Of a stretch of 32,000 nucleotides of DNA, positions 2,840 through 29,488 are shown one piece after another. Both the position numbers and the translations under genes were made by a program. How positions within the stretch are numbered: position 1 is the stretch's first letter; each line of letters starts with the position of its first letter. Source of the DNA: Breznakia sp. PF5-3 (GTDB lineage Bacteria > Bacillota_I > Bacilli_A > Erysipelotrichales > Erysipelotrichaceae); contig NZ_JAQFIQ010000014.1 of assembly GCF_029504745.1 (NCBI RefSeq), positions 1-32,000 on the forward strand, given 5' to 3'. The notes under the pieces are model-generated. The model searched no databases and was not told where the DNA came from. It saw only the letters and a program-made list of their open reading frames with translations.

Positions 2840-3045
2840 AAAAAAACCATCCTTAATCATAAGGACGGTTTAGACCGCGGTACCACCTTAGTTCATTTCA
2901 TATATATGAAATGCGCTTCATTCACTGTAACGTAGCGACCCGTCTTATCCTACTTCTTTTCAAATAAGCTACTCATAAGTGATATCTTTACTATAGAAGC
3001 GTTTGCGTTTCACCATTTTCGCAACTCTCTGTTCACTTCAATACA
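2840..3045 (-). promoter_or_regulatory. T-box riboswitch leader (candidate Ile specifier AUC) with terminator hairpin
   Basis: On the minus strand: stem I AGAGAG...GGTGAAA elements (about 3010-3030), the conserved T-box sequence TAAGGTGGTACCGCGG (2875-2890), a terminator hairpin at 2847-2868 followed by a U-run (2840-2846), and a candidate specifier AUC-A at 2983-2981. Confidence 0.88.
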
Positions 3046-3057
3046 ATAAAGCATGTC

Positions 3058-3519
3058 TTAATCTTTGTATTTCTTTTCTATTAATTCTACATTAGGAATT
3101 GGGGGAATGTCAAATCCATCTATTGTATCTGACAATAAAGCCAACTGTTCATTCAAATTCACTTTAATTTCATTTGCTTCAATTCCCAATTTTGATATTT
3201 TAATCAATATCGTTCTTGCATTCAACAAGGCTTCCTTAATAATCATATCTGCATTATTATTTGCACTGTTTACAATGCTATTTGCTTCACTCAATGCAAT
3301 CCTTGTCATATCTTTTGCAGCTTGTTCTTTGATTTCTAAATCTCTTGATAACTGCTCATATTTCACTTTATACTTTTGAATGCATTTTTGATCTTCTTCA
3401 CTTTGTTTCTTATAAGCATCCAACTTTTTCTTTAATTCATCTATTTCTTCTTGGGCTTTGGATAATGCGTCATCAACTTGAAAACGATTATAACCCTTAT
3501 TCATAGTATCAAATTGCAT
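3058..3519 (-). CDS. divIVA: DivIVA-domain cell division protein
   Basis: 153 aa. N-terminal F..MNKGYNRFQVDDAL DivIVA motif followed by coiled-coil sequence. The sepF-ylmH-divIVA-ileS synteny is conserved. Confidence 0.9.
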   Translation of the reverse strand: MQFDTMNKGYNRFQVDDALSKAQEEIDELKKKLDAYKKQSEEDQKCIQKYKVKYEQLSRDLEIKEQAAKDMTRIALSEANSIVNSANNNADMIIKEALLNARTILIKISKLGIEANEIKVNLNEQLALLSDTIDGFDIPPIPNVELIEKKYKD

Positions 3520-18106: not shown

Positions 18107-19237
18107 TTATTCTTTGGTAAAGATTTGCAAATCAACATTCATAATATAGTCCAATTCTGCTGCATGTGATTCATCACTTTCAACAAACAATACACCAAAT
18201 GCATCGAATGTTTGAAAATCAAATTTACGCAATGACAAAGGTTTATTAATTTTTGAAAGCAATTGTTCATAATTAAAAAAAGTTATTGGTTCTTTAACAC
18301 TTGGCTTATTAAGAACAATCATTGCATATTTTTCTTTTCCTTTGTTTTTCAAGATTTCATCCCATACTGGAATTTTATTGTTTAAGAAATAATCATATGC
18401 ATAAAAACCAAATGCATAATATGAAAGATCATTACAACACAACCCTGCAAATCGCATTGGGTTACATTCAATAATGGATATTTGCTCATCTTTTACCCTT
18501 ATTTCAATATGAGAAGCAAAATTCATCACCCCTAAATAAGAGTTCATTTGTATAAAAAAGGTTTCAAACTTCTTAAGATTTTGTATAATAATATCTTTAC
18601 TTGTGTAATATAAACGATCACTTACATCTGCATTTGAAGAAAACTCATGTTTTAAAATGTTTAAAATGACTGGTTTACCATTTTCATCAAAATATACATC
18701 AATAGCATACTCTTCTCCATCAATATATTCTTCCAAAATAAACTTACTCTTCCCAACTACCTGCTCATGATAAAGTTCATCCCACTTTGCTACTTCTCTT
18801 TGTAAAGATTGTATTGCTTGTTTATAATCTTTTTCATTTTCAATATAATAAACACCAGCACTAAAGAAGCCAACTGTTGGCTTAAGAATACATGGAACCT
18901 TTATTTGGGAAAAAGGTAAGTTGAATAGTGATGATAAATCAAGTTCTCTAAAATAATACGTTGGATACATATCCTTCATTTTTTCACGAAAAAGTGCTTT
19001 ATCTTTCATTATCTCAATATTTTGAATACGAACTTTGTTTTCATCATTTTCATAAACCCAATGTAGAGATGTTTCCGAAGCTGTATAAATACGTTCCCCC
19101 GGTATAGCTCTCTGTACTAGATTCAATCCATCAATACCTTGCGATTGAATATAATCATTTAATAACACTGGGTGTTGTGATGTTTTTGCATAAGTTATTA
19201 AGTCTTCTGAAATATATGGTTTATCTAATATAATCAT
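18107..19237 (-). CDS. ATP-grasp domain protein (carboxylate-amine/L-amino-acid-ligase-like; substrate unknown)
   Basis: 376 aa. ATP-grasp hallmarks: ILKPTVGFFSAGVYYI, ILEEYIDGEEYAIDVYF and HIEIRV....ISIIECNPMRFAG. The ATG at 19237 is preceded by GGAGGA. Confidence 0.8.
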   Translation of the reverse strand: MIILDKPYISEDLITYAKTSQHPVLLNDYIQSQGIDGLNLVQRAIPGERIYTASETSLHWVYENDENKVRIQNIEIMKDKALFREKMKDMYPTYYFRELDLSSLFNLPFSQIKVPCILKPTVGFFSAGVYYIENEKDYKQAIQSLQREVAKWDELYHEQVVGKSKFILEEYIDGEEYAIDVYFDENGKPVILNILKHEFSSNADVSDRLYYTSKDIIIQNLKKFETFFIQMNSYLGVMNFASHIEIRVKDEQISIIECNPMRFAGLCCNDLSYYAFGFYAYDYFLNNKIPVWDEILKNKGKEKYAMIVLNKPSVKEPITFFNYEQLLSKINKPLSLRKFDFQTFDAFGVLFVESDESHAAELDYIMNVDLQIFTKE

Positions 19238-19259
19238 TTTTATCCTCCATATTTTTATC

Positions 19260-19288
19260 ATCATAACATAAAAGGTCTATTGTGCAAA
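19260..19288 (-). promoter_or_regulatory. candidate promoter for the ATP-grasp gene (TTTGCA-17-TGtTATGAT)
   Basis: Minus strand: extended -10 TGTTATGAT (19260-19268), with -35 TTTGCA (19283-19288) lying in the loop of the pyrG terminator. Confidence 0.35.
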
Positions 19289-19315: not shown

Positions 19316-20908
19316 TTATTTTAAAGAAGCTTTTATGAATTCCCTAAATAAAGGATGTGCTTTATTTGGTCTAGATTTGAATTCAGGATGATATTGAACT
19401 CCAATATGAAAATCATTTTTATTATATTCGATTGCCTCCACAAGAAGATTATCTGGACTCGTTCCTACAATTTCCATATGATTATGAATAAATTCATCAC
19501 GATAATCATTATTAAACTCATAACGATGGCGATGCCTTTCAGATATCTTTTCTTCTTGGTAAGTATAATATAATTTTGAATCTTTTTTAATAGTGCATGG
19601 GTAAGCTCCTAAACGCATTGTTCCACCTTTGTGATCTATGCTAATTTGTGAGTCCATTAAATCAATTACATTGTGTTTTCCTTGTGGAGTGAATTCACTT
19701 GAATTTGCATCTAGATATTTTAAAACATTTCGAGCAAACTCTATCGTTGCAATTTGCATCCCTAAACATATTCCTAAATATGGAATATTATTTTCTCGTG
19801 CATATTGACAAGCTAAAACCATGCCATCCATTCCACGCTCTCCAAAACCACCAGGAATGATAATGCCATGACATTCGCCAAGCACTTCACTAATTGTATC
19901 TGGATTCAAAGATTCACTATCTATCCATTTTATTTCCACTTCTGCATCATTTTCATAGCCTCCATGCTTTAGTGCTTCTACAATGGATAAATATGCATCA
20001 TGTAACTTTGTATACTTTCCAACCAACGCTATTTTAGCCTGCTTATTACAGCTTTTTATTCTTGTTACTAAAGTTTTCCAAGCCTCCATATTTGGTGCTG
20101 GAGTTATCAAATTCAATTCACGACAGACAATATCAGAAAAATTCGCTTCCTCCAACATCAATGGACATTCATATAAGATAGGAAGAGTTACATTTTGAAT
20201 AACACAATCCTTTTTCACATTACAAAAAAGCGCAATTTTATTTAATATAGAAACATCTAAAAATTCATCACTTCGACATACAATGATATCTGGAGAAATT
20301 CCCAATGATTGCAATTCTTTTACACTATGCTGCGTTGGTTTTGATTTATGTTCCCCACTGCTTTTAATGTAAGGGACTAACGTTACATGAATAAACAAAC
20401 AATTCTCTTTTCCCACCTCAAAACTCACTTGTCGAATTGCTTCTAAAAATGGTTGCGATTCAATATCCCCTGTAGTTCCACCAATTTCACTGATCACCAT
20501 ATCAGCGTCTTGTTCATCACCTACAGCATAAATAAAATCTTTAATCTCTTGTGTAATATGAGGAATTACTTGTACCGTTTCACCTAAATATTCACCTTTG
20601 CGTTCTTTATTTAAAACATTCCAATATACCTTTCCACTTGTTAAATTGGAAAACCGATTCAAATCCTCATCAATAAACCGCTCATAATGGCCCAAATCAA
20701 GATCTGTCTCAGCTCCATCATCGGTCACAAAAACTTCACCATGCTGATAAGGTGACATCGTTCCACAATCTACATTGATATATGGATCCATCTTCTGTGC
20801 CATAACTTTTAAACCACGTTCTTTTAATAACCTACCTAAACTAGCAGCTGTAATGCCTTTCCCCAAGCCACTTACAACACCACCTGTTACAAAAATATAT
20901 TTTCTCAT
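19316..20908 (-). CDS. pyrG: CTP synthase (glutamine-hydrolysing)
   Basis: [19 protein letters not shown]-terminus, GATase nucleophile GICLGMQ and HRHRYEFN. The ATG at 20908 is preceded by GGTGGGTG and lies only 12 nt from the stop of the ANTAR gene. Confidence 0.96.
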
Positions 20909-20920
20909 TTCACCCACCAT

Positions 20921-21487
20921 TTAACCATATGTCTTTAATATTTCCTTTGCTACCATTTCTTTTGAAACACGTTTATCCATCGCTTTCTTTTCAATATATC
21001 GATGTGCTTGTACTTCGCTCATATTCAAATATTCAATCAGAACGTACTTTGCTCGACTAATCAATTGAATATTTTCTACTTTTTCATGTAAACGAATATT
21101 TTCATCATGAAAATTACTAATTCTTCGATGTGTCGATAGTGCCATTGAGATCGCTTGTGTGAACACTTGACGATCAAGTGGTTTTCCTATACACATAACA
21201 CCAAATTTATTTAGCCGATTACTAACATCTTCTAAGATTTCCTTTTTTATCAACATAACTACTCCACTAGTTGAATTTTGTGCAGCATACATTGTAATCT
21301 CATGCCCAAATTCATCAGCGAGTGGTGTATTGATTAACACTAAATCAAAACGTTGAGTATTCAACAACTGTTTTGCTTCTTTTGCACTTTTACTAGCTAC
21401 AATCGTATCGATATGAATAGCTTTTAAAAGTTGTGATAGTGCATCAAGACTTTTATCTAAACTGGAAACAATCAAACAACTACTCAT
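20921..21487 (-). CDS. ANTAR-domain antiterminator with a degenerate (pseudo-)receiver domain
   Basis: 188 aa. The C-terminal ANTAR region is LISRAKYVLIEYLNMSEVQAHRYIEKKAMDKRVSKEMVAKEIL. The N-terminal part has a CheY-like fold but lacks the acidic pocket and the phospho-acceptor Asp. Confidence 0.85.
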   Translation of the reverse strand: MSSCLIVSSLDKSLDALSQLLKAIHIDTIVASKSAKEAKQLLNTQRFDLVLINTPLADEFGHEITMYAAQNSTSGVVMLIKKEILEDVSNRLNKFGVMCIGKPLDRQVFTQAISMALSTHRRISNFHDENIRLHEKVENIQLISRAKYVLIEYLNMSEVQAHRYIEKKAMDKRVSKEMVAKEILKTYG

Positions 21488-21503
21488 ACCTTACCTCACT
21501 TTC

Positions 21504-22775
21504 CTAAATTAATTTAAAATATGGATCACTATCAAATCTTTGCTCATCTTTATATGATGCAGCTTCTTCACTCTTTATTTCACAGAACATTGTAACTGTT
21601 TTTTTATTTATTACTTCTTTAACAAATTCTGAATTTTGTACACTTTCTACAGCTTCTTTCAGATTTTTTGGCAATTCCTTTGTACTTTTTGAATGCCCCT
21701 CACTCAATGTTTCACTTTTTCGCATCCCTTCAATTCCCGCATATAATAATAAGCCATAGGCGTAATAAGGATTACATGCAGCATCTGCTGAGCGCAACAT
21801 GATATAAGAATACTCATCTTGCTTTTCATCAACACGCAACAACTGACTTTGATTCCCTTCGGCCCAAGTTATGTACTTTGGTGCTTTTTCACTTCCCAAA
21901 CGTTCATAAGAATTATTAATTGGATTCAAAAACAAACTCATCTCATAAGTACGATTCAATACTCCAGCAATAAAATTTCGTTGTTCCTCCAAGTTTACTT
22001 CATAATCATCTTCAAAAATATTTCGATCATTCTTGCTTAGGGTTACTTTAATTCTCAATCCACTACCACTTGCATCAGCAAGCGGGCGTGGTAAAAATGA
22101 AGCATACAAATCATTCAATAAAGCAATACTCTTTACACAGTTCTTAAACGTTATCAAGTTATCTGCAGCTTGCAATGCATAATTATCTTCAAAGGTTATC
22201 ACGTTTTGTCCAGGTCCTTTTTCATGATAACTCATCTTTGTTTTTACACCCATTTCTTCTAAAGAAAGACATATTTCTCGACGAATATTTTCACCACCAT
22301 CCAAAGGTGTAACATCCAAATACGATGCATGGTCAATCGGTCGATTTGTAGGATTTCCATCCACATCGTTTTGAAATAAATAAAACTCGCTTTCAATCCC
22401 TATTTTAGGTGTATATCCATAGGATTCACAAGCCTCCATCGCTTGTTTTAAAAAGTATCTTCCATCTCCTTCAAATGGCGTTCCATCAAGGTGTCGAATA
22501 TCACAAAAAAAACGAACAACTTTTTCATGACCTGATCTCCATGGCAAGATTGTCATTGTATCCAAATCTGGATAGAGTAGTAAATCCGTTTTCTTATAGT
22601 TCATAAAACCATTAACATCAGATGCATCTAAGTTAATTCCTTCTTCTGTGGCTTGTTCGAAGTCGTCTGCATTAATAGATAAATTTTTGAGTGTTCCAAA
22701 AATATCACAAAATGCTAAGCGAACAAATTTCACATGATTTAGCTCAATATACCGCAAAATTTTCTCTATTTTCAT
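21504..22775 (-). CDS. class I glutamine synthetase homolog with substituted active-site motifs (GS-like, possibly non-catalytic)
   Basis: 423 aa, collinear with GlnA (VKFVRLAFCDIFGTLKN, DGTPFEGD, GIESEFYLF, NSYERL, LRSAD..CNPY). However GQxE reads GQNV, NGSGMH reads SGSGLR, NRS reads NQS and ExRSxD reads MLRSAD. The ATG at 22775 is preceded by GGAGGA. Confidence 0.85.
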   Translation of the reverse strand: MKIEKILRYIELNHVKFVRLAFCDIFGTLKNLSINADDFEQATEEGINLDASDVNGFMNYKKTDLLLYPDLDTMTILPWRSGHEKVVRFFCDIRHLDGTPFEGDGRYFLKQAMEACESYGYTPKIGIESEFYLFQNDVDGNPTNRPIDHASYLDVTPLDGGENIRREICLSLEEMGVKTKMSYHEKGPGQNVITFEDNYALQAADNLITFKNCVKSIALLNDLYASFLPRPLADASGSGLRIKVTLSKNDRNIFEDDYEVNLEEQRNFIAGVLNRTYEMSLFLNPINNSYERLGSEKAPKYITWAEGNQSQLLRVDEKQDEYSYIMLRSADAACNPYYAYGLLLYAGIEGMRKSETLSEGHSKSTKELPKNLKEAVESVQNSEFVKEVINKKTVTMFCEIKSEEAASYKDEQRFDSDPYFKLI

Positions 22776-22796
22776 GACATCCTCCATTCTGTTTTC

Positions 22797-22825
22797 ATTA
22801 TAACACGAAAAATCTTATGTCTGAA
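22797..22825 (-). promoter_or_regulatory. candidate promoter of the GS-like/ANTAR/pyrG operon (TTCAGA-17-TGtTATAAT)
   Basis: Minus strand: extended -10 TGTTATAAT (22797-22805) and -35 TTCAGA (22820-22825). The predicted leader is very short, about 15 nt. Confidence 0.5.
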
Positions 22826-22868
22826 TTATAGACCTAATTATAAAATGATGTCAACTCTCAAAATCAAC

Positions 22869-22897
22869 TTTCTAAATTCAAAAAAATTGTCTATAAT
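22869..22897 (+). promoter_or_regulatory. candidate promoter for the GNAT gene (weak -35, TATAAT -10)
   Basis: TATAAT at 22892-22897, with TTTCTA/TTCTAA 16-17 nt upstream. Confidence 0.3.
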
Positions 22898-22937
22898 AAG
22901 GTTACATCTTACTAAAAAATATACTTGGAGAACGCTT

Positions 22938-23462
22938 ATGCACAATTATTTTTTAAAAACTAAACGAATTGGATTTTCAAAATGGAATTATGATGATTTG
23001 GAACTTGCAACAAAACTATGGGGCAATAAAGAAGTGGGTAAGTATATTCATGCAAATCATTTTTTTAGTGTTGAAGAGATACATGAGCGTCTAAAGGAAG
23101 AAATCAAGAATGAGGAATATTTTCATATTCAATATTTTCCTATTTTTTCATTATCTGACAATCAATTTATTGGTTGTTGTGGCTTTCGTCCCTTTGTGGA
23201 CAATCCACAACAAATAGAAATGGGATTTCACTTACTTCCTGCATTTTGGCATCAAGGATATGCCTTTGAAGCAAGTGATGCAATTTTAAAATACATTCAT
23301 AATAAACATCGTGAATTAAAGATTTATGCAGGACATCACCCTGATAATGAAGCTTCAGCAAGACTTTTAAAGAAATTGGGGTTTTTATACTTTAAAGATG
23401 AGTTTTATAAGCCAACAAACAAATATCATCGATGCTATCAATATTCTAAAAATATAGCTTGA
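22938..23462 (+). CDS. GNAT family N-acetyltransferase (RimJ/RimL-like)
   Basis: About 174 aa starting at the ATG at 22938 (RBS TGGAGAA). GNAT core: IGCCGFRP...GFHLLPAFWHQGYAFEA...ASARLLKKLGF. The ORF-track extension from 22845 is unlikely to be real. Confidence 0.85.
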   Translation: MHNYFLKTKRIGFSKWNYDDLELATKLWGNKEVGKYIHANHFFSVEEIHERLKEEIKNEEYFHIQYFPIFSLSDNQFIGCCGFRPFVDNPQQIEMGFHLLPAFWHQGYAFEASDAILKYIHNKHRELKIYAGHHPDNEASARLLKKLGFLYFKDEFYKPTNKYHRCYQYSKNIA

Positions 23463-23487
23463 CAAGAAACCCAAGAAAGGATAAACT
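23459..23487 (+). promoter_or_regulatory. candidate promoter TTGACA-17-TAAACT overlapping the GNAT stop codon
   Basis: A perfect -35 TTGACA (23459-23464), a 17-nt spacer and TAAACT (23482-23487). A transcript from here would begin just upstream of the attenuator hairpins. Confidence 0.35.
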
Positions 23488-23512
23488 CTTTGTATAACAG
23501 CAAAGGTGCTGT
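23476..23512 (+). promoter_or_regulatory. candidate ANTAR-type dual hexaloop hairpin (P1 and P2); P2 competes with the terminator
   Basis: P1 is AAAGG-AUAAAC-UCUUU (23476-23491) and P2 is ACAGC-AAAGGU-GCUGU (23497-23512), separated by a 5-nt linker. The P2 loop has A at position 1 and G at position 4. P2 uses nt 23505-23512, which belong to the left arm of the terminator. Confidence 0.4.
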
Positions 23513-23541
23513 AGGTATTTTTATCTACGGCACCTTTTTTT
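23505..23541 (+). terminator. strong intrinsic terminator/attenuator in the glnN leader
   Basis: GGTGCTGTAG-loop-CTACGGCACC 10-bp stem (one G-U pair) followed by 7 T (23535-23541). Only 15 nt separate the T-run from the glnN RBS GGGAGG (23557-23562). Confidence 0.8.
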
Positions 23542-23568
23542 GTTAGTTCGATTAATGGGAGGAAATTT

Positions 23569-25668
23569 ATGAAAACAAACGTGACTGAGGTTTTTGGGTC
23601 TATGGTCTTTGATGATCGTTGTATGAAAGCAAAGTTACCTAAAGATGTTTATAAAAAGTACAAAGCTACGATCGATGAAGGAAAGCTTCTTGATCCTGAT
23701 TGTGCTAATACCATTGCATCCGCTATGAAAGATTGGGCTATTGAAAACGGTGCAACACATTATACTCATTGGTTTCAGCCAATGACAGGAATCACTGCAG
23801 AAAAGCATGATGCTTTTATTTCTCCAAGTGGAGATGGAAGTATTATCATGGAATTTTCTGGTAAAGAACTTATCAAGGGTGAACCAGATGCTTCTAGTTT
23901 TCCTAATGGTGGATTACGAGCAACTTTTGAAGCTCGTGGTTATACTGGGTGGGATCCAACATCATATACATTCATCAAAGAAGGCGTTTTATGTATCCCA
24001 AGTGTCTTCATGTCTTACAATGGCGAAGCACTTGATAAAAAAACACCACTCCTAAAATCTCAAGAACTTATCAATACGCAAGCATTGCGAATTCTAAAGT
24101 TATTTGGTAAAGATAATGTGAAACGCGTTCATACAACCGTTGGTGCAGAACAAGAATACTTTCTTATTGAAAAGTCACTTTGGGATCAACGAAAAGACTT
24201 GATTTACACTGGTAGAACACTTTATGGTGCTAGACCTCCAAAAACTCAAGAACTTGATGACCACTACTTTGGTGTATTAAAACCAAAAGTAGCATCGTTT
24301 ATGAAAGAACTGAATGAAGAATTGTGGAAATTAGGTATTCTAGCAAAAACGCAACATAATGAAGTTGCTCCTGCACAACATGAATTAGCACCTATCTATT
24401 CACTCACAAATGTCGCTACCGACCATAATCAACTAACTATGGAAATCATGAAAAAAGTGGCCTTACGCCATGGACTTGTTTGTTTATTACATGAAAAGCC
24501 GTTTGCAGGAATCAACGGAAGTGGTAAACACAATAACTGGTCCCTATCAACAGATACCGGAGAGAACCTGTTAGAACCTGGAGATACGCCAAGTGAAAAC
24601 GCTCAATTCTTGCTTATGCTAGCAGCGCTAGTTAAAGCTGTTGACGATTACCAAGACTTACTAAGAATATCTGTTGCAAGTGCAGGAAATGATCATCGCT
24701 TAGGTGCTAATGAAGCCCCTCCTGCAATCATTTCCATCTTTACTGGTTCTGAGTTAGAAGAAATCATAAATGCAATCATTGAAGATAGACCTTGCAAAAC
24801 GGTATGTGCGAATAAAATGACCATCGGTGTTGATGCCTTACCTCCTTTTACAAAAGACACAACCGATCGTAATCGTACATCACCGTTTGCTTTTACTGGA
24901 AACAAATTTGAATTTCGCATGTTAGGATCACAATTATCTATTTCTTGTCCTAATATTATGATTAACACAATTGTTGCCGATACATTAAATAACTTTGCTG
25001 ACCATTTAGAAAAAGCAACAGATTTTAATAAAGAATTACACGAATTGATTAAAAAAACATTTACTGAACATCAAAGAATCATATTTAATGGTAATGGATA
25101 TGATGATTCATGGATTGTAGAGGCAGAAAAGCGAGGACTTATGAATTTTAGAACTACGCCAGAAGCTTTGCCACACTATATGGATGAGAAAAATATTCAA
25201 TTATTTACTAGAAATAACATTTACACAAAAAGTGAAATGCAATCTCGTATGGATATCTTAATCGAAGAATATTCAAAGGCTATTAATATTGAAGCAGAAA
25301 CAATGGTAAACATGTCTAAGAAGAATATCATTCCTGCCATTTTAGCTTATATCAAAGATTTGAGTGAAAGCATTGTTACCAAAAAGGCAATATCTTCAAC
25401 GATAAAGTTTGAAGTTGAAGACTCTCTCATCAATAAATTAAGTGTTCTTGCGAGTGATTTGTATCGTAAAACAGAAGAATTAGCAGATGATATCATTAAA
25501 GCTAATGGAATTAAAGACTTGCAAGAAAATGCTAAATATTATTGTAATAGCGTGCTTGTGAAAATGGTTGACTTGCGTGCCATTGCCGATGAAATCGAGC
25601 AAAACTGCGCCAAGCAGTATTGGCCCTTCCCTTCATATGGAGATTTATTATATTCTGTCTCTATATAA
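23569..25668 (+). CDS. glnN: glutamine synthetase, type III
   Basis: 699 aa with GSIII length and N-terminus. Catalytic motifs are intact: AEQEYFL, HNEVAPAQHE, NGSGKHNNWS, ANEAPP, DRNRTSPFAFTGNKFEFR. Confidence 0.93.
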   Translation: MKTNVTEVFGSMVFDDRCMKAKLPKDVYKKYKATIDEGKLLDPDCANTIASAMKDWAIENGATHYTHWFQPMTGITAEKHDAFISPSGDGSIIMEFSGKELIKGEPDASSFPNGGLRATFEARGYTGWDPTSYTFIKEGVLCIPSVFMSYNGEALDKKTPLLKSQELINTQALRILKLFGKDNVKRVHTTVGAEQEYFLIEKSLWDQRKDLIYTGRTLYGARPPKTQELDDHYFGVLKPKVASFMKELNEELWKLGILAKTQHNEVAPAQHELAPIYSLTNVATDHNQLTMEIMKKVALRHGLVCLLHEKPFAGINGSGKHNNWSLSTDTGENLLEPGDTPSENAQFLLMLAALVKAVDDYQDLLRISVASAGNDHRLGANEAPPAIISIFTGSELEEIINAIIEDRPCKTVCANKMTIGVDALPPFTKDTTDRNRTSPFAFTGNKFEFRMLGSQLSISCPNIMINTIVADTLNNFADHLEKATDFNKELHELIKKTFTEHQRIIFNGNGYDDSWIVEAEKRGLMNFRTTPEALPHYMDEKNIQLFTRNNIYTKSEMQSRMDILIEEYSKAINIEAETMVNMSKKNIIPAILAYIKDLSESIVTKKAISSTIKFEVEDSLINKLSVLASDLYRKTEELADDIIKANGIKDLQENAKYYCNSVLVKMVDLRAIADEIEQNCAKQYWPFPSYGDLLYSVSI

Positions 25669-25711: not shown

Positions 25712-25741
25712 AAAGGAGAACTTCATTCAAAGTTCTCCTTT
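25712..25741. terminator. bidirectional terminator between glnN and the convergent hypothetical gene
   Basis: AAAGGAGAACTT-cattca-AAGTTCTCCTTT perfect 12-bp stem. Its right arm overlaps the stop codon of the minus-strand ORF. Confidence 0.8.
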
Positions 25742-26456
25742 ATATTTCGACGGTTGTTGATTCTGGAAAATTCAAATTATATTCATCAAAGGTAAAATTC
25801 AAGTCAACATGATAGGTTCCTACAGGAGCTTGTGATGTATCCAATTCATATATTGAATTCATATGCACATAATCACTTTCTTCTGCTACTTTATTATTAC
25901 TTATATAGTTGATTTTCATATCCACCTTTTGATCAAAATGAACTTCAACCTTTGGTGCGTTAACAGGCTGGGTTTTCTCATAATAATAAGAAACTGTGTA
26001 TATAATTTTGCTTTCCGTTTTTGTATTAGTAACCTGAAAATCTAATACTTCATCTATATAACTATATGTACTTTTCTCTATTGTTTTTCCATTGTCCAAT
26101 GTTATTACGAAAGAAAATTCATTATTCCCAGTATGAATACCACTTCCAAACAAACCAATAGAATATACAGCTTTATCACTTACATCTTGTAGTAATTTTT
26201 CCCCATGATAGATTTCCATTTTTTCTATTATGTCATTTCCACGATTGACACTCCAATTAAAAGTAAGATTAAGCCCTTGTGTTAATGATACACTAAAACT
26301 CTCAATTCCTGTATTGGTATCGCCACTTGTCCCTGGATCAGGAGTTCTTGTATTTGTGTTTGAATTTCTTGTAAGTTGTATAACCAACGCGGTGATACAT
26401 ACTACAAGGATGGTTATCAAAGCAATAAACACTTTATTTTTTTTCAAATATTCCAA
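25740..26456 (-). CDS. hypothetical membrane-anchored extracytoplasmic protein
   Basis: 238 aa. TTG start preceded by AAGGAG. N-terminal TM anchor (VFIALITILVVCITALVIQL), an N/T/G/P-rich linker and then a beta-strand-rich domain of about 190 aa with no motif I recognise. Confidence 0.65.
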   Translation of the reverse strand: MEYLKKNKVFIALITILVVCITALVIQLTRNSNTNTRTPDPGTSGDTNTGIESFSVSLTQGLNLTFNWSVNRGNDIIEKMEIYHGEKLLQDVSDKAVYSIGLFGSGIHTGNNEFSFVITLDNGKTIEKSTYSYIDEVLDFQVTNTKTESKIIYTVSYYYEKTQPVNAPKVEVHFDQKVDMKINYISNNKVAEESDYVHMNSIYELDTSQAPVGTYHVDLNFTFDEYNLNFPESTTVEI

Positions 26457-26588: not shown

Positions 26589-27419
26589 TTAATCAAATAC
26601 TGCAACTACTAAATCACCATATGTTTTTTCAATGTATTTCTTAGTTTTTGCGTTTGTTAAGACTTTTATCAAAGCTTTGATTTTTTTATCATCCCCATGC
26701 CCTTTTTTAACTGCGATTACATTTGCATATGTTTGTGCTGCTTCACTACCTTTATCTTCTGACACAATCAAGTTTCCATCCACTTCATTTGTCAATGCAT
26801 AATTTCCATTTATGATAGCATAATCTACATCAGGTAATGTTGCTGCTACACCTTCCGCTTTAACTTCAAGAATTTCAACATTCTTTGGATTCTTCGTGAT
26901 ATCTGTTTTAGTTGCTGATAATCCTGCATCTTTTTTTACCTCGATAATTCCTTTTGCAGCTAACAATTGAAGAGCTCTTGCTTCATTTGTTGGATCATCT
27001 GGCACAGAGATAACAGCGCCGTCTTTCACATCATCAACTGAGAAATCTTCATTTTTTTCAGTTGTATCATTACTATAAATTCCAATTGGTTCAAAGTGAA
27101 TTTTTGCCACTGCTTCTACTTCTGTACCATTATCTTCATTAAATCCTTCTAAATATGGCGTATGTTGGAAAAAGTTTGCATCTATTTCCCCTTCATCAAC
27201 AGCTAAGTTTGGTTGAACATAATCATCAAATACTTGAATATCTAACTCATACCCTTCTTTTTTCAAATCTTCTTCAATGCTTTCTAAGATTTCTGCATGT
27301 GGTGATGCAGAAGCTCCAATTGTAATTGTTTCTAATTCTTCTTTAGCTTCATCACCACTATTTCCACCACAGCCTACTAATAGTCCTAAAGCTATAAATA
27401 CACCTAATAATTTTTTCAT
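26589..27419 (-). CDS. metQ: methionine ABC transporter substrate-binding lipoprotein (MetQ/NlpA family)
   Basis: Lipobox LLVGCGG. NlpA-family sequence features and a position in the metN-metI-metQ operon. Confidence 0.92.
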   Translation of the reverse strand: MKKLLGVFIALGLLVGCGGNSGDEAKEELETITIGASASPHAEILESIEEDLKKEGYELDIQVFDDYVQPNLAVDEGEIDANFFQHTPYLEGFNEDNGTEVEAVAKIHFEPIGIYSNDTTEKNEDFSVDDVKDGAVISVPDDPTNEARALQLLAAKGIIEVKKDAGLSATKTDITKNPKNVEILEVKAEGVAATLPDVDYAIINGNYALTNEVDGNLIVSEDKGSEAAQTYANVIAVKKGHGDDKKIKALIKVLTNAKTKKYIEKTYGDLVVAVFD

Positions 27420-27431
27420 TTCTTTCTCCTC

Positions 27432-28175
27432 CTAATGGGTTGTTTTTCTTGTTAAATAATTTCCTAATGCTTGTATCGCGGTTACGATTAATAAAATAAT
27501 AATTACTGTAGACCAGGTTGCATCCACTTTACCTCGTGCATATCCATGTCGAATAGCAAATGCACCTAGACCTCCTCCTCCTACTTGACCAGCCATTGCA
27601 GTTAATCCAAGCAATGAAATCAAGGTAATTGATACGGAGCGAATAATACCAGGAATACTCTCTTTTAAATAAACTCGTGTAATGATTTGCATTGGTGTGT
27701 TTCCCATTGCAATACTTGCTTCAATCAATCCATCATCTACTTCTGAAAGTACCGATTCAATTTGTCTTGCAAAAAATGGAATAGTTCCAAAAATTAAGGG
27801 AATATATGTTCCTTTTATACCAGTTGCCGTCCCCATAACCAATCTTGATGCACCAACCAATAAAGCCATCAAAATAACAAATGGAATAGAACGGAAGAAA
27901 TTAATAAATTTATCTAAGATAAAATAAATAATTTTGTTTTCCAAAATTCCATCTTTCTTAGTAACGGTAATAAGAACCCCAAAGATTATTCCAAATATCA
28001 ATGCAAAGATTCCTGAAAAGAATAACATTTTTAATGTCATATATGTTTCTTGTACCAATTCACTAATCATTTTAGGATTATTCATAAAATCCATAGGTAG
28101 AAATTGTGTAACAACATCAAATATGACAGCTAAGATTGACTCAAAAAAATTTGAAATCATTGTTCCTATATCCAT
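27432..28175 (-). CDS. metI: methionine ABC transporter permease
   Basis: 247 aa polytopic protein with an ABC permease loop (DDGLIEASIAMGNTPMQII). The start overlaps the metN stop (TAATG). Confidence 0.9.
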   Translation of the reverse strand: MDIGTMISNFFESILAVIFDVVTQFLPMDFMNNPKMISELVQETYMTLKMLFFSGIFALIFGIIFGVLITVTKKDGILENKIIYFILDKFINFFRSIPFVILMALLVGASRLVMGTATGIKGTYIPLIFGTIPFFARQIESVLSEVDDGLIEASIAMGNTPMQIITRVYLKESIPGIIRSVSITLISLLGLTAMAGQVGGGGLGAFAIRHGYARGKVDATWSTVIIILLIVTAIQALGNYLTRKTTH

Positions 28176-29209
28176 TATTTCAACACCTCCACTCCAACAC
28201 CTTGTCCTTTAATATACGTGATAGCACTTTCTATGTTTGCTTTTTCACCTTTCAGCTTAACCACCAAATTTCCAAGTGGACTATTCGCTAGTACTTCAAC
28301 ATTACCAAATATGATATTAAAACTAACATCATATGTTTTCACTAAGTACGTCATCAAAGCTTCTTTGGTATTGCTAGATGAGTAAACAAGCCGTAACATC
28401 GTCTCATCAACATCCAAATCGACAAGCGGATCATTCTTCTCAATCAATTCATAAATCTGATGAATCGATGTAGTCGTATTAATAAAAGTACGTGTAACTT
28501 CACTTTTTGGTTTTGTAAAAATATCTATGATATTTCCTTCTTCTACAATATTTCCATCTTCCATGATTGCTACTTTGTTACAAATCGCTTTTACAACTGC
28601 CATTTCATGAGTGATGATTACAATTGTTATTTTGAGCTTTTCATTTAAGTTTTTTAGAAGTGCTAGTATTGATTGTGTTGTTTGAGGATCAAGTGCACTT
28701 GTTGCTTCATCACAAAGCAGAATACTAGGATCATTAGCCAAAGCTCTTGCAATTGCAACTCTTTGCTTTTGTCCTCCACTAAGCTGTGATGGATATGCTT
28801 TCTTCTTGTCCTTTAATTCTACTAATTCCAATAATTCATCAACCTTCTTATTTATTTGCTCTTTACTTAAACCACTTCCCTTTAGCGGAAAAGCGATGTT
28901 TTGAGCAACAGTTCTAGATCTCATCAAATTGAAATGTTGAAATATCATTCCTATTTTCTTCCGTTCTGCACGTAAATCCCGTGCACTCAAATCCATTAAA
29001 TTTTTACCATCAATTACTACTTCACCCTCGGTTGGACGTTCTAATAAATTAATACAACGAATTAAAGTACTTTTTCCAGCACCACTGAATCCAATGACAC
29101 CAAATATATCTTTCTCCTCTATATGTAAGGATGCTTTTCTTACTGCATGTACATCATTTTCTTTGGTCTTAAATATTTTTGTGATATTCACTAATTGGAT
29201 TTTACTCAC
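28175..29209 (-). CDS. metN: methionine ABC transporter ATP-binding protein (with C-terminal NIL domain)
   Basis: Walker A GFSGAGKST, signature LSGGQKQR, Walker B ILLCDEATSALD. The likely start is GTG at 29209, preceded by AGGAGGTGG; the ORF-track extension to 29260 would run into the T-box terminator. Confidence 0.93.
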   Translation of the reverse strand: MSKIQLVNITKIFKTKENDVHAVRKASLHIEEKDIFGVIGFSGAGKSTLIRCINLLERPTEGEVVIDGKNLMDLSARDLRAERKKIGMIFQHFNLMRSRTVAQNIAFPLKGSGLSKEQINKKVDELLELVELKDKKKAYPSQLSGGQKQRVAIARALANDPSILLCDEATSALDPQTTQSILALLKNLNEKLKITIVIITHEMAVVKAICNKVAIMEDGNIVEEGNIIDIFTKPKSEVTRTFINTTTSIHQIYELIEKNDPLVDLDVDETMLRLVYSSSNTKEALMTYLVKTYDVSFNIIFGNVEVLANSPLGNLVVKLKGEKANIESAITYIKGQGVGVEVLK

Positions 29210-29228
29210 ACTTCCACCTCCTATAAAA

Positions 29229-29488
29229 TAAAAAAACATTCTCCCAAAGGACGAATGCATCGTGTTACCACCTTAATTTACTAATATATTACTATATTAG
29301 CCTCTTCGAGTACTATCATACTCTATCACAATAACGGGTGAACCCGACATAATCTAAAGAACTCTCATTCAATTATGTAACTCCAAGACCATTTTCGATA
29401 AACTACTAACCTTATCCATTTTCACCATACTGGACTCTCTAAGAAGGATTTCATAAATGTACTCTTCTCTTCATCGTTTTTAATTTAT
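29229..29488 (-). promoter_or_regulatory. T-box riboswitch leader (candidate Met specifier AUG) controlling metNIQ
   Basis: On the minus strand: stem I AGAGAGTCCAGTATGGTGAAAATGG, candidate specifier GAA-AUG-A (AUG at 29368-29366), the T-box sequence TAAGGTGGTAACACG (29261-29275), and a terminator hairpin at 29237-29257 followed by a T-run. Confidence 0.88.

Follow-up and report, generated by a model that had tools for sequence, protein, structure and literature searches.

Within a 32-kb window of DNA from the gut bacterium Breznakia sp. PF5-3 (Erysipelotrichaceae), the window being the whole stretch that was analyzed, we studied the region from 19316 to 25668, in which genes for a glutamine synthetase (GS)-like protein, an ANTAR-domain protein and the CTP synthase PyrG lie on one strand and glnN, the gene of a type III GS, lies on the other (Table 1). 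Our preferred interpretation, to which we assign a probability of about 0.6, is that this region carries a nitrogen antitermination module of the glnA-nitR type whose type I GS (GS-I) partner became a pseudoenzyme. An earlier note on this DNA had proposed a circuit in which a GS pseudoenzyme and an ANTAR protein control the real, type III GS by antitermination. Comparative sequence analysis supports this hypothesis, and every outcome that could have spoken against it and was tested computationally came out in its favor.

The GS-like product is 423 amino acids long and is 100% identical to an NCBI protein named "glutamine synthetase [Breznakia sp. PF5-3]" (P0001). Its open reading frame reaches 22787, and the probable start is M5 at 22775, with a GGAGGA ribosome-binding site before it. 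The two-domain GS-I architecture is present: we found the N-terminal beta-grasp domain (PF03951) at 7.7e-24 and the C-terminal catalytic domain (PF00120) at 6.4e-72, and the protein aligns over its full length to GS structures at 2e-88. On the TIGR00653 GlnA model it scores 291 bits, under the equivalog cutoff of 429; the same model gives 401-433 bits for canonical ANTAR-linked relatives and 267-327 bits for other degenerate ones.

We read the active site from alignments to solved GS structures, to 120 database homologues and to a further set of 80 homologues, with residues numbered as in S. typhimurium GS. Three of the six metal ligands are lost (E220 is replaced by Val, H269 by Arg and E357 by Met), leaving E129, E131 and E212. 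Catalytic and nucleotide-binding residues are altered as well: R339 has become Gln, R355 Tyr and the flap residue E327 Lys, and the Asn equivalent to H271 has become Lys. D50, R321, R344 and R359 are retained. Among the 120 homologues, these substitutions were confined to the clade of the query, which consists of Breznakia spp., Erysipelotrichaceae MTC7 and one distant relative at 53% identity; the remaining 111 were all canonical. At 14 positions, canonical relatives are at least 90% invariant but all four Breznakia-clade members differ from them, and nearly all of these positions map to the catalytic centre. The disabled active site described in the earlier note is borne out by these alignments, from which it appears very unlikely that the protein is a GS enzyme.

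A full-length GS-like open reading frame is intact in every member of the clade, down to 53% identity, and the replacement residues Arg (H269 position) and Lys (H271-equivalent position) are conserved across all of them. The pairwise ratio of nonsynonymous to synonymous substitution rates (dN/dS, omega) was 0.07-0.14 among the closer members and reached 0.22 in comparisons with the most distant. It was 0.067 for the pair L001-L002 (B. blatticola and MTC7) compared with 0.108 for the canonical pair L006-L007; dS is saturated and these omega values are rough. Because omega is low, the open reading frames are intact and the replacement residues are conserved, we conclude from the sequence comparisons that the GS-like gene is functional and under purifying selection rather than decaying. 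A functionless, decaying relic would fit the loss of catalytic residues, as well as the observation that the GS-like protein evolves faster than its canonical Erysipelotrichia sisters. The selection analysis effectively refutes this explanation, against which the perfect consensus promoter of the gene also speaks.

The protein encoded by the next gene carries an ANTAR domain (PF03861) that scores 52.3 bits against a cutoff of 27.3, and a receiver domain (Response_reg) that, at 28.6 bits, falls below its cutoff of 30.2. It aligns to Rv1626 (1S8N) over residues 17-188; in this alignment, Asn53 occupies the position of the phospho-acceptor Asp, and the acidic pair of the receiver is replaced by Ser8-Ser9. 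The motifs CLIVSS and LIN(T/A)P do not vary among six orthologues. Judging from these replacements, the ANTAR protein probably cannot be phosphorylated, as the earlier note had claimed, and with neither phospho-Asp nor acidic pair its signal would therefore have to come from a partner and not from a kinase. The trait is not special to the Breznakia locus, however: a pseudo-receiver was found in all six Erysipelotrichia orthologues, with canonical or degenerate GS alike, and in most of 80 further ANTAR homologues. Asp, not Asn, stands at the phospho-site in five homologues from Treponema/Spirochaetes (L068, L082, L044, L081 and L057) and in L034, L069, L025 and L035. These Asp-bearing homologues are still without the acidic pair, and their genes adjoin a GS-I with canonical metal ligands wherever the contig holds a GS (L081 is cut off upstream).

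We then surveyed the pairing of the two genes across genomes with a scan seeded by an ANTAR alignment, taking one genome per species. This yielded 80 loci among the matches listed, the Breznakia genomes not being among them, and the locus counts for pairing, leaders and ligand loss given below refer to these listed loci. Of the 77 informative loci, 74 carry a GS-I gene directly before the ANTAR gene; the rest of the 80 comprise one fusion, two loci without an adjacent GS-I and three uninformative loci that end at a contig edge upstream of the ANTAR gene. In the window, 16 nucleotides separate the GS-like gene from the ANTAR gene, in the direct succession that the earlier note had reported. The start of pyrG abuts the ANTAR stop codon, so that the three genes are tightly packed on the minus strand and, as a correction to the earlier note, pyrG belongs to the GS-like/ANTAR operon. 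The conservation of the gene set, which the note had named as a check, was found in Erysipelotrichia relatives: the arrangement of glnN divergent from GS-I, ANTAR and pyrG is kept in Breznakia blatticola, Erysipelotrichaceae MTC7, the distant relative and two Erysipelotrichia whose GS is canonical. L001-L007 and about 20 of L008-L087 have pyrG after the ANTAR gene. The ANTAR stop and pyrG start codons abut or overlap in many lineages, in which the two genes are probably translationally coupled, and glutamine-consuming pyrimidine enzymes are tied to the putative nitrogen-sensor operon.

Loss of the active site is not limited to the Breznakia clade. Outside it, at least one metal ligand is lost in about 26 of 73 listed ANTAR-linked GS-I loci, whose catalytic motifs align well, in the patterns E129K/R/S, E131Q, E212K/L/S, E220V/I, H269K/L/S/A/N and E357I/V. 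These losses fall into at least 6-8 separate lineages, several of them with canonical sisters, on a neighbour-joining tree, for which long-branch attraction is a caveat. In an Oscillospiraceae lineage we found a natural fusion, a protein of 301 amino acids in which the GS beta-grasp N-domain continues in frame into the pseudo-receiver/ANTAR protein; it has no GS catalytic domain, and the D50 motif is lost. The fusion occurs in four 90% sequence clusters (P0121, P0122, P0123 and P0125) at 68-100% identity and on many independent contigs, for example at L043:9665-10570 (+), L088:8001-8903 and L089:4045-4947, and carA-carB-pyrG lie downstream of the fusion gene.

These comparisons bear on two other explanations of the GS-like protein. 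The first is that it is an enzyme with altered chemistry, such as a gamma-glutamyl ligase that needs no metal or binds it through other ligands, or a glutaminase-like enzyme, with the ANTAR protein sensing by some other route and the adjacency being inherited. In its favor, the protein keeps seven residues (E129, E131, E212, D50, R321, R344 and R359), some GS-like paralogues, such as GlnA2/3/4 of Streptomyces, act on other substrates, and strong purifying selection fits an enzyme equally well. We nevertheless consider this unlikely, as half of the metal ligands, R339 and the E327 flap are replaced; to our knowledge, the known gamma-glutamyl-amine ligases keep their metal ligands, which counts against it further. 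Other ANTAR-linked lineages have lost different ligands, a pattern that fits loss of function and not one new chemistry, and one lineage has deleted the whole catalytic domain while fusing the N-domain to the ANTAR protein.

The second, that the dead GS acts non-catalytically but without the ANTAR protein, appears similarly improbable. It might modulate GlnN or CTP synthase, or chaperone an unlinked DNA-binding regulator, and the ligand of the ANTAR protein would then be a small molecule or a different protein, for instance PII. The GS-I of Bacilli does control TnrA and GlnR by contact, and the structures nearest to the GS-like protein (7TDP, 7TF6) come from that work; in addition, pyrG or carAB-pyrG is co-operonic in many lineages, and the regulon of other taxa includes amtB-PII fusions. 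The adjacency of GS-I and ANTAR genes is near universal, however, and that of pyrG and glnN is partial, and the partner to which the GS N-domain has been fused is the ANTAR protein and no other. Nor does the 32-kb window hold a gene for a MerR-type regulator (GlnR/TnrA), NtrBC or PII. The earlier note had observed the same absence, which is weak evidence as it concerns the window only.

The proposed target of this pair is glnN, which encodes an intact type III GS: the protein matches B. fragilis GSIII (3O6X) over its full length (residues 5-696) at E = 6e-191 and keeps the equivalents of E129, E131, E212, E220, H269, R321 and E327 in the alignment, and we read the E357 equivalent by eye in the motif KFEFRMLG. 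Its leader begins at a promoter of its own. Nine bases separate the end of the -10 box from the start of a 5-bp hairpin. Its hexaloop, AAAGGT, begins with A and has G in fourth place, the signature of ANTAR substrates. The 3' half of this loop and the 3' arm (GCTGT) double as the 5' arm of an intrinsic terminator, so that the two structures compete. The terminator has a predicted energy of -27 kcal/mol (z = -8.9), against -7.1 kcal/mol for the hairpin alone; termination should therefore be the default, and the hairpin would need stabilising.

The leader is conserved well beyond Breznakia. All Erysipelotrichia relatives have the layout of promoter, hairpin and terminator, and the hairpin-terminator precedes glnN in 33 of the 38 loci with a complete glnN, in taxa that include Sedimentibacter, Romboutsia, Intestinibacter, Oscillospiraceae and Ruminococcus. 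In two of the remaining five loci, an attenuator lies before asnA immediately upstream, which brings the operon total to about 35 of 38. Across 30 aligned leaders, the loop reads AARGGY in 30 of 30; 98% of hairpin cells are paired, with 3 compensatory pairs, and for the terminator the figure is 95.9%, 8 of its 14 pairs showing compensatory changes. Nearly all leaders preserve the -35 and -10 boxes and the distance to the hairpin, while the sequence in between is not conserved. Since the -10 box ends 7-11 nucleotides before the hairpin in nearly all leaders, only one hairpin fits. A candidate for a second (P1) hairpin in the Breznakia leader, CTTTG...CAAAG with the loop ATAACA, was rejected: it overlaps the -10 box and transcription start, cannot form together with the conserved hairpin and is missing from relatives. 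A motif search of the 32-kb window found no hexaloop hairpin other than the glnN copy, and searches of the glnN leader against Rfam found no family at gathering scores nor at E values up to 10.

Part of the earlier description of this leader had to be revised. The terminator overlapped by an ANTAR-type hairpin stands, with one hairpin rather than several, and the leader lies between the GNAT acetyltransferase gene and glnN, on glnN's own promoter. The notion of GNAT and glnN as one divergent unit did not hold up. The GNAT gene occurs in this strain only, is absent from L001-L007 and from the other loci and, on this comparison, is a lineage-specific insertion outside the conserved system. Its TGA stop sits inside the glnN -35 hexamer (gcTTGACA), and any transcripts reading through from GNAT would run into the same glnN attenuator.

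Similar hairpins mark other nitrogen genes. In related loci, the AARGGY hexaloop sits on unrelated stems (GAAC/GTTC, ACAC/GTGT and CGGC/GCCG), always overlapping a terminator, and such leaders precede asnA, amtB-PII fusions, the GATase_2 subunit of glutamate synthase, gdh and GS-ANTAR operons. The GS-ANTAR operon leader, a GAAC-AA(A/T/G)GGC-GTTC hairpin overlapping a terminator (for example L006:7915-7975 (+)), was found in 11 canonical loci (L006, L011, L012, L013, L026, L030, L033, L041, L048, L063 and L074), which suggests that canonical GS-ANTAR operons are autoregulated. In the degenerate Breznakia-clade loci, we found no hexaloop hairpin upstream of the GS-like gene and, in its place, a plain consensus promoter. 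In the window this promoter is followed by a short, unstructured 5' untranslated region (fold z = -0.57), and no attenuator was found before the operon. The operon leader occurs in 11 of 49 canonical and 3 of 31 degenerate GS loci, two of the three being doubtful, which is no more than a trend and was not counted as evidence. Genomes with a degenerate GS retain attenuators on glnN, amtB or glutamate-synthase genes. The association that the earlier note had suggested tracing phylogenetically, of degenerate GS-I with ANTAR genes and with hexaloop leaders on glnN, amtB or glutamate synthase, is found in these genomes.

We also considered whether the hairpin might be something other than an ANTAR site: either a DNA operator, given the ACAGC-N6-GCTGT palindrome past the transcription start, or an RNA element that serves another factor or acts alone. 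An inverted repeat at about +1 to +20 of a sigma-70 promoter is in a typical position for a repressor, the single hairpin differs from the dual-hairpin ANTAR substrate (PMC3369931), and no Rfam family matches. We judge this explanation to be quite improbable. G-U wobble variants of the stem (GCAGC/GCTGT and ATAGC/GCTGT) preserve pairing, the invariant AARGGY loop is asymmetric and carries A1 and G4 as ANTAR substrates do, and the 3' arm and loop always lie within the covarying terminator. Moreover, the same loop appears on unrelated stems before other nitrogen genes in genomes that were chosen by ANTAR similarity.

Taking the ANTAR protein as the likely ligand of the hairpin and the pseudoenzyme as its likely controller, the circuit may work as follows. 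Sequence and comparison show that the GS-like/ANTAR/pyrG operon is transcribed from its consensus promoter without an attenuator, and glnN from its own promoter, its leader folding by default into the strong terminator. The 5-bp AARGGY-hexaloop hairpin at the extreme 5' end of the transcript takes up bases of the terminator base; the ANTAR protein probably binds and stabilises this hairpin, upon which RNA polymerase would read through into glnN. Two active-site positions of the GS-like protein now hold Arg and Lys, and one of the two used to be a metal ligand; the protein appears to have lost its metal and ATP chemistry and to have kept the amino-acid-binding residues E131, R321 and R359. We infer that it signals glutamine or nitrogen status through direct contact with the pseudo-receiver, for which the natural fusion of the GS N-domain to the pseudo-receiver/ANTAR protein gives indirect support. 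At high glutamine it would most probably sequester the ANTAR protein, as in feedback-inhibited GS/TnrA and AmiC/AmiR; at low glutamine the ANTAR protein would be released and glnN switched on.

Several observations weigh against this scheme. The published ANTAR substrate consists of two hairpins (PMC3369931), and here there is one. The hairpin stem is almost invariant, and its covariation in the glnN leaders amounts to 3 events only. In the degenerate proteins we found no preferential conservation of the N-domain, the identity ratios of N- to C-domain being 1.08-1.23 in all classes. R62 has been linked to glutamine feedback in the GS of B. subtilis, and its position holds Asn throughout the ANTAR-linked GS-I family. 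Finally, the sign of regulation that we propose draws on analogy and on the phenotype of a glnA deletion: the GS-I mutant of C. thermocellum reportedly over-expresses nitrogen-assimilation genes despite high glutamine.

The module as such is known. The pairing of glnA and nitR in clostridia has been described (Stutz 2007, as cited in PMC6316151), as the earlier note was aware, and that 2018 review reports that NitR induces GS/GOGAT genes on nitrogen limitation and calls nitrogen sensing by NitR-type regulators "not fully understood" (PMC6316151). Matches to the ANTAR RNA motif upstream of operons annotated "glutamine synthetase; ANTAR regulatory protein" are given by Ramesh 2012 (PMC3369931 Table S2). 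In C. thermocellum, the single type I GS, Clo1313_2031 (PMC9888227, PMC5887222), adjoins the ANTAR regulator Clo1313_2030 (PMC4676874, PMC9888227), and deletion of this GS-I "deregulates nitrogen metabolism", in the words of the title of Rydzak 2017 as cited elsewhere. The Breznakia locus shares with glnA-nitR of Clostridium saccharobutylicum/C. acetobutylicum and C. thermocellum the order of a GS-I gene and a co-oriented gene for a receiver-like ANTAR protein of about 190 amino acids, the protein families (the GS are 47-54% identical) and, on our interpretation, antitermination control of nitrogen-assimilation genes (PMC6316151, PMC4676874, PMC9888227). It differs in that its GS, without three of six metal ligands, can hardly be the assimilatory enzyme, whereas the clostridial GS is regarded as active, and in that its operon has no attenuator of its own and the regulated gene is a type III GS.

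Precedents for the proposed mechanism are AmiC-AmiR of Pseudomonas aeruginosa and NasS-NasT of Paracoccus denitrificans, in which a non-phosphorylatable ANTAR protein is held and released by a ligand-binding partner encoded by the adjacent gene (PMC3369931, PMC3795266). A pseudo-receiver ANTAR protein and an adjacent partner gene are common to all three, and the mechanism we propose for Breznakia is alike. The partners there have a periplasmic-binding-protein fold and bind amide or nitrate, and the complexes were demonstrated experimentally; the Breznakia partner has a GS fold, presumably as a dodecamer, and its complex is a proposed one. EutV/Rv1626-type two-component ANTAR regulators differ from the Breznakia protein, whose receiver is without phospho-Asp and acidic pocket.

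GS acts as a trigger enzyme for TnrA and GlnR. Feedback-inhibited GS of Bacillus and other Firmicutes, like the proposed Breznakia sensor, belongs to type I-alpha GS, senses glutamine and controls a regulator by contact, and the structures closest to the GS-like protein (7TDP, 7TFA, 4LNF) come from that group. There, an active GS controls MerR-type DNA-binding proteins; in Breznakia, we propose a pseudoenzyme and an RNA-binding antiterminator. With the dual-hairpin substrate of EutV, NasR and AmiR (PMC3369931), the glnN leader has in common a short stem, a hexaloop with A1 and G4, a hairpin built from the 5' base of an intrinsic terminator and an association with nitrogen genes, including GS-ANTAR operons; it differs in having one hairpin, at the extreme 5' end, and a loop, AARGGY, that is far more constrained than the published consensus. 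Our literature search found no description of a catalytically dead GS as ANTAR partner, in agreement with the earlier note, nor of the recurrent loss of its catalytic residues, of the N-domain fusion or of a single 5'-terminal AARGGY hairpin.

Table 1. Features of the glnN and GS-like/ANTAR/pyrG region, in coordinates of the Breznakia sp. PF5-3 window
Feature	Position	Strand	Basis
pyrG, glutamine-hydrolysing CTP synthase, third gene of the operon	19316-20920	-	NCBIfam PRK05380, 825 bits
Pseudo-receiver and ANTAR protein, predicted RNA-binding antiterminator (NitR-like), 188 amino acids	20921-21487	-	Pfam domains
Predicted GS-I-derived pseudoenzyme, proposed nitrogen/glutamine sensor	21504-22775	-	Pfam Gln-synt_N and Gln-synt_C
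Predicted sigma-70 promoter of the GS-like/ANTAR/pyrG operon, TTGACA-18-TATAAT	22825-22854	-	12/12 consensus match
GNAT acetyltransferase (Acetyltransf_3), start probably 22939	22939-23462	+	Pfam
Predicted glnN promoter, TTGACA-17-TAAACT	23459-23487	+	Sequence motif, conserved in relatives
Predicted antiterminator hairpin ACAGC-AAAGGT-GCTGT, proposed ANTAR site	23497-23512	+	Motif, fold, covariation
Predicted intrinsic terminator, 5' arm AAAGGTGCTGTAGGT, 3' arm ATCTACGGCACCTTT, then T-run	23502-23544 (stem 23502-23537)	+	Fold, covariation
glnN, intact type III GS, proposed regulated target	23569-25668	+	GSIII_N, Gln-synt_C and Gln-synt_C-ter domains

The rest of the window holds ileS, cell-division genes, thr/hom/lysC/asd, murB/murG, a sortase gene and metNIQ. 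It also has two T-box leaders that pass the gathering score of Rfam: one at 2858-3074 (-), upstream of ileS (78-2819), and one at 29244-29483 (-), upstream of the metN-metI-metQ operon (26589-29260). Beside the 3' end of glnN, at 25740-26456 (-), a gene encodes a protein of about 238 amino acids with an N-terminal hydrophobic segment and no Pfam match. A gene for about 237 amino acids, also with no Pfam match, occupies the equivalent position in B. blatticola (L001:4684-5397) and MTC7 (L002:4844-5557), the likeness being one of position only. Directly downstream of pyrG, at 18107-19264 (-), lies a gene for an ATP-grasp_4 protein, which is not at that position in related loci.

Taken together, the loci form a natural series that starts with an active GS, passes through one whose active site is dead and ends with an N-domain joined to the regulator, with the ANTAR gene linked throughout, and attenuator leaders persist on neighbouring nitrogen genes in loci with canonical and degenerate GS. 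Given this linkage and the retained leaders, the GS itself is indicated as the sensor. How NitR senses nitrogen in clostridia and their relatives has been an open question since the 1990s, and Breznakia would offer a built-in separation-of-function allele, in which a regulatory role stands apart from catalysis. The compact RNA element, consisting of a promoter, a 16-nucleotide hairpin and a terminator and not present in Rfam, appears to mark a nitrogen regulon in many gut and rumen anaerobes, and it may be usable for annotation or as a nitrogen-responsive genetic switch.

More broadly, we would place at even odds the proposal that the whole ANTAR-linked GS-I family, in Clostridia, Erysipelotrichia and some Treponema, is a glutamine-sensing receptor for a pseudo-receiver antiterminator, with contact probably through the beta-grasp domain, catalysis dispensable and control exerted through a single 5'-terminal AARGGY hairpin. 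If true, this would explain why pseudoenzymes arose repeatedly wherever the chemistry is left to a type III GS, and why one lineage has reduced its GS to an N-domain fused to the regulator. It would also make a one-hairpin ANTAR substrate part of the principal means by which a large share of the anaerobic Firmicutes control nitrogen metabolism.

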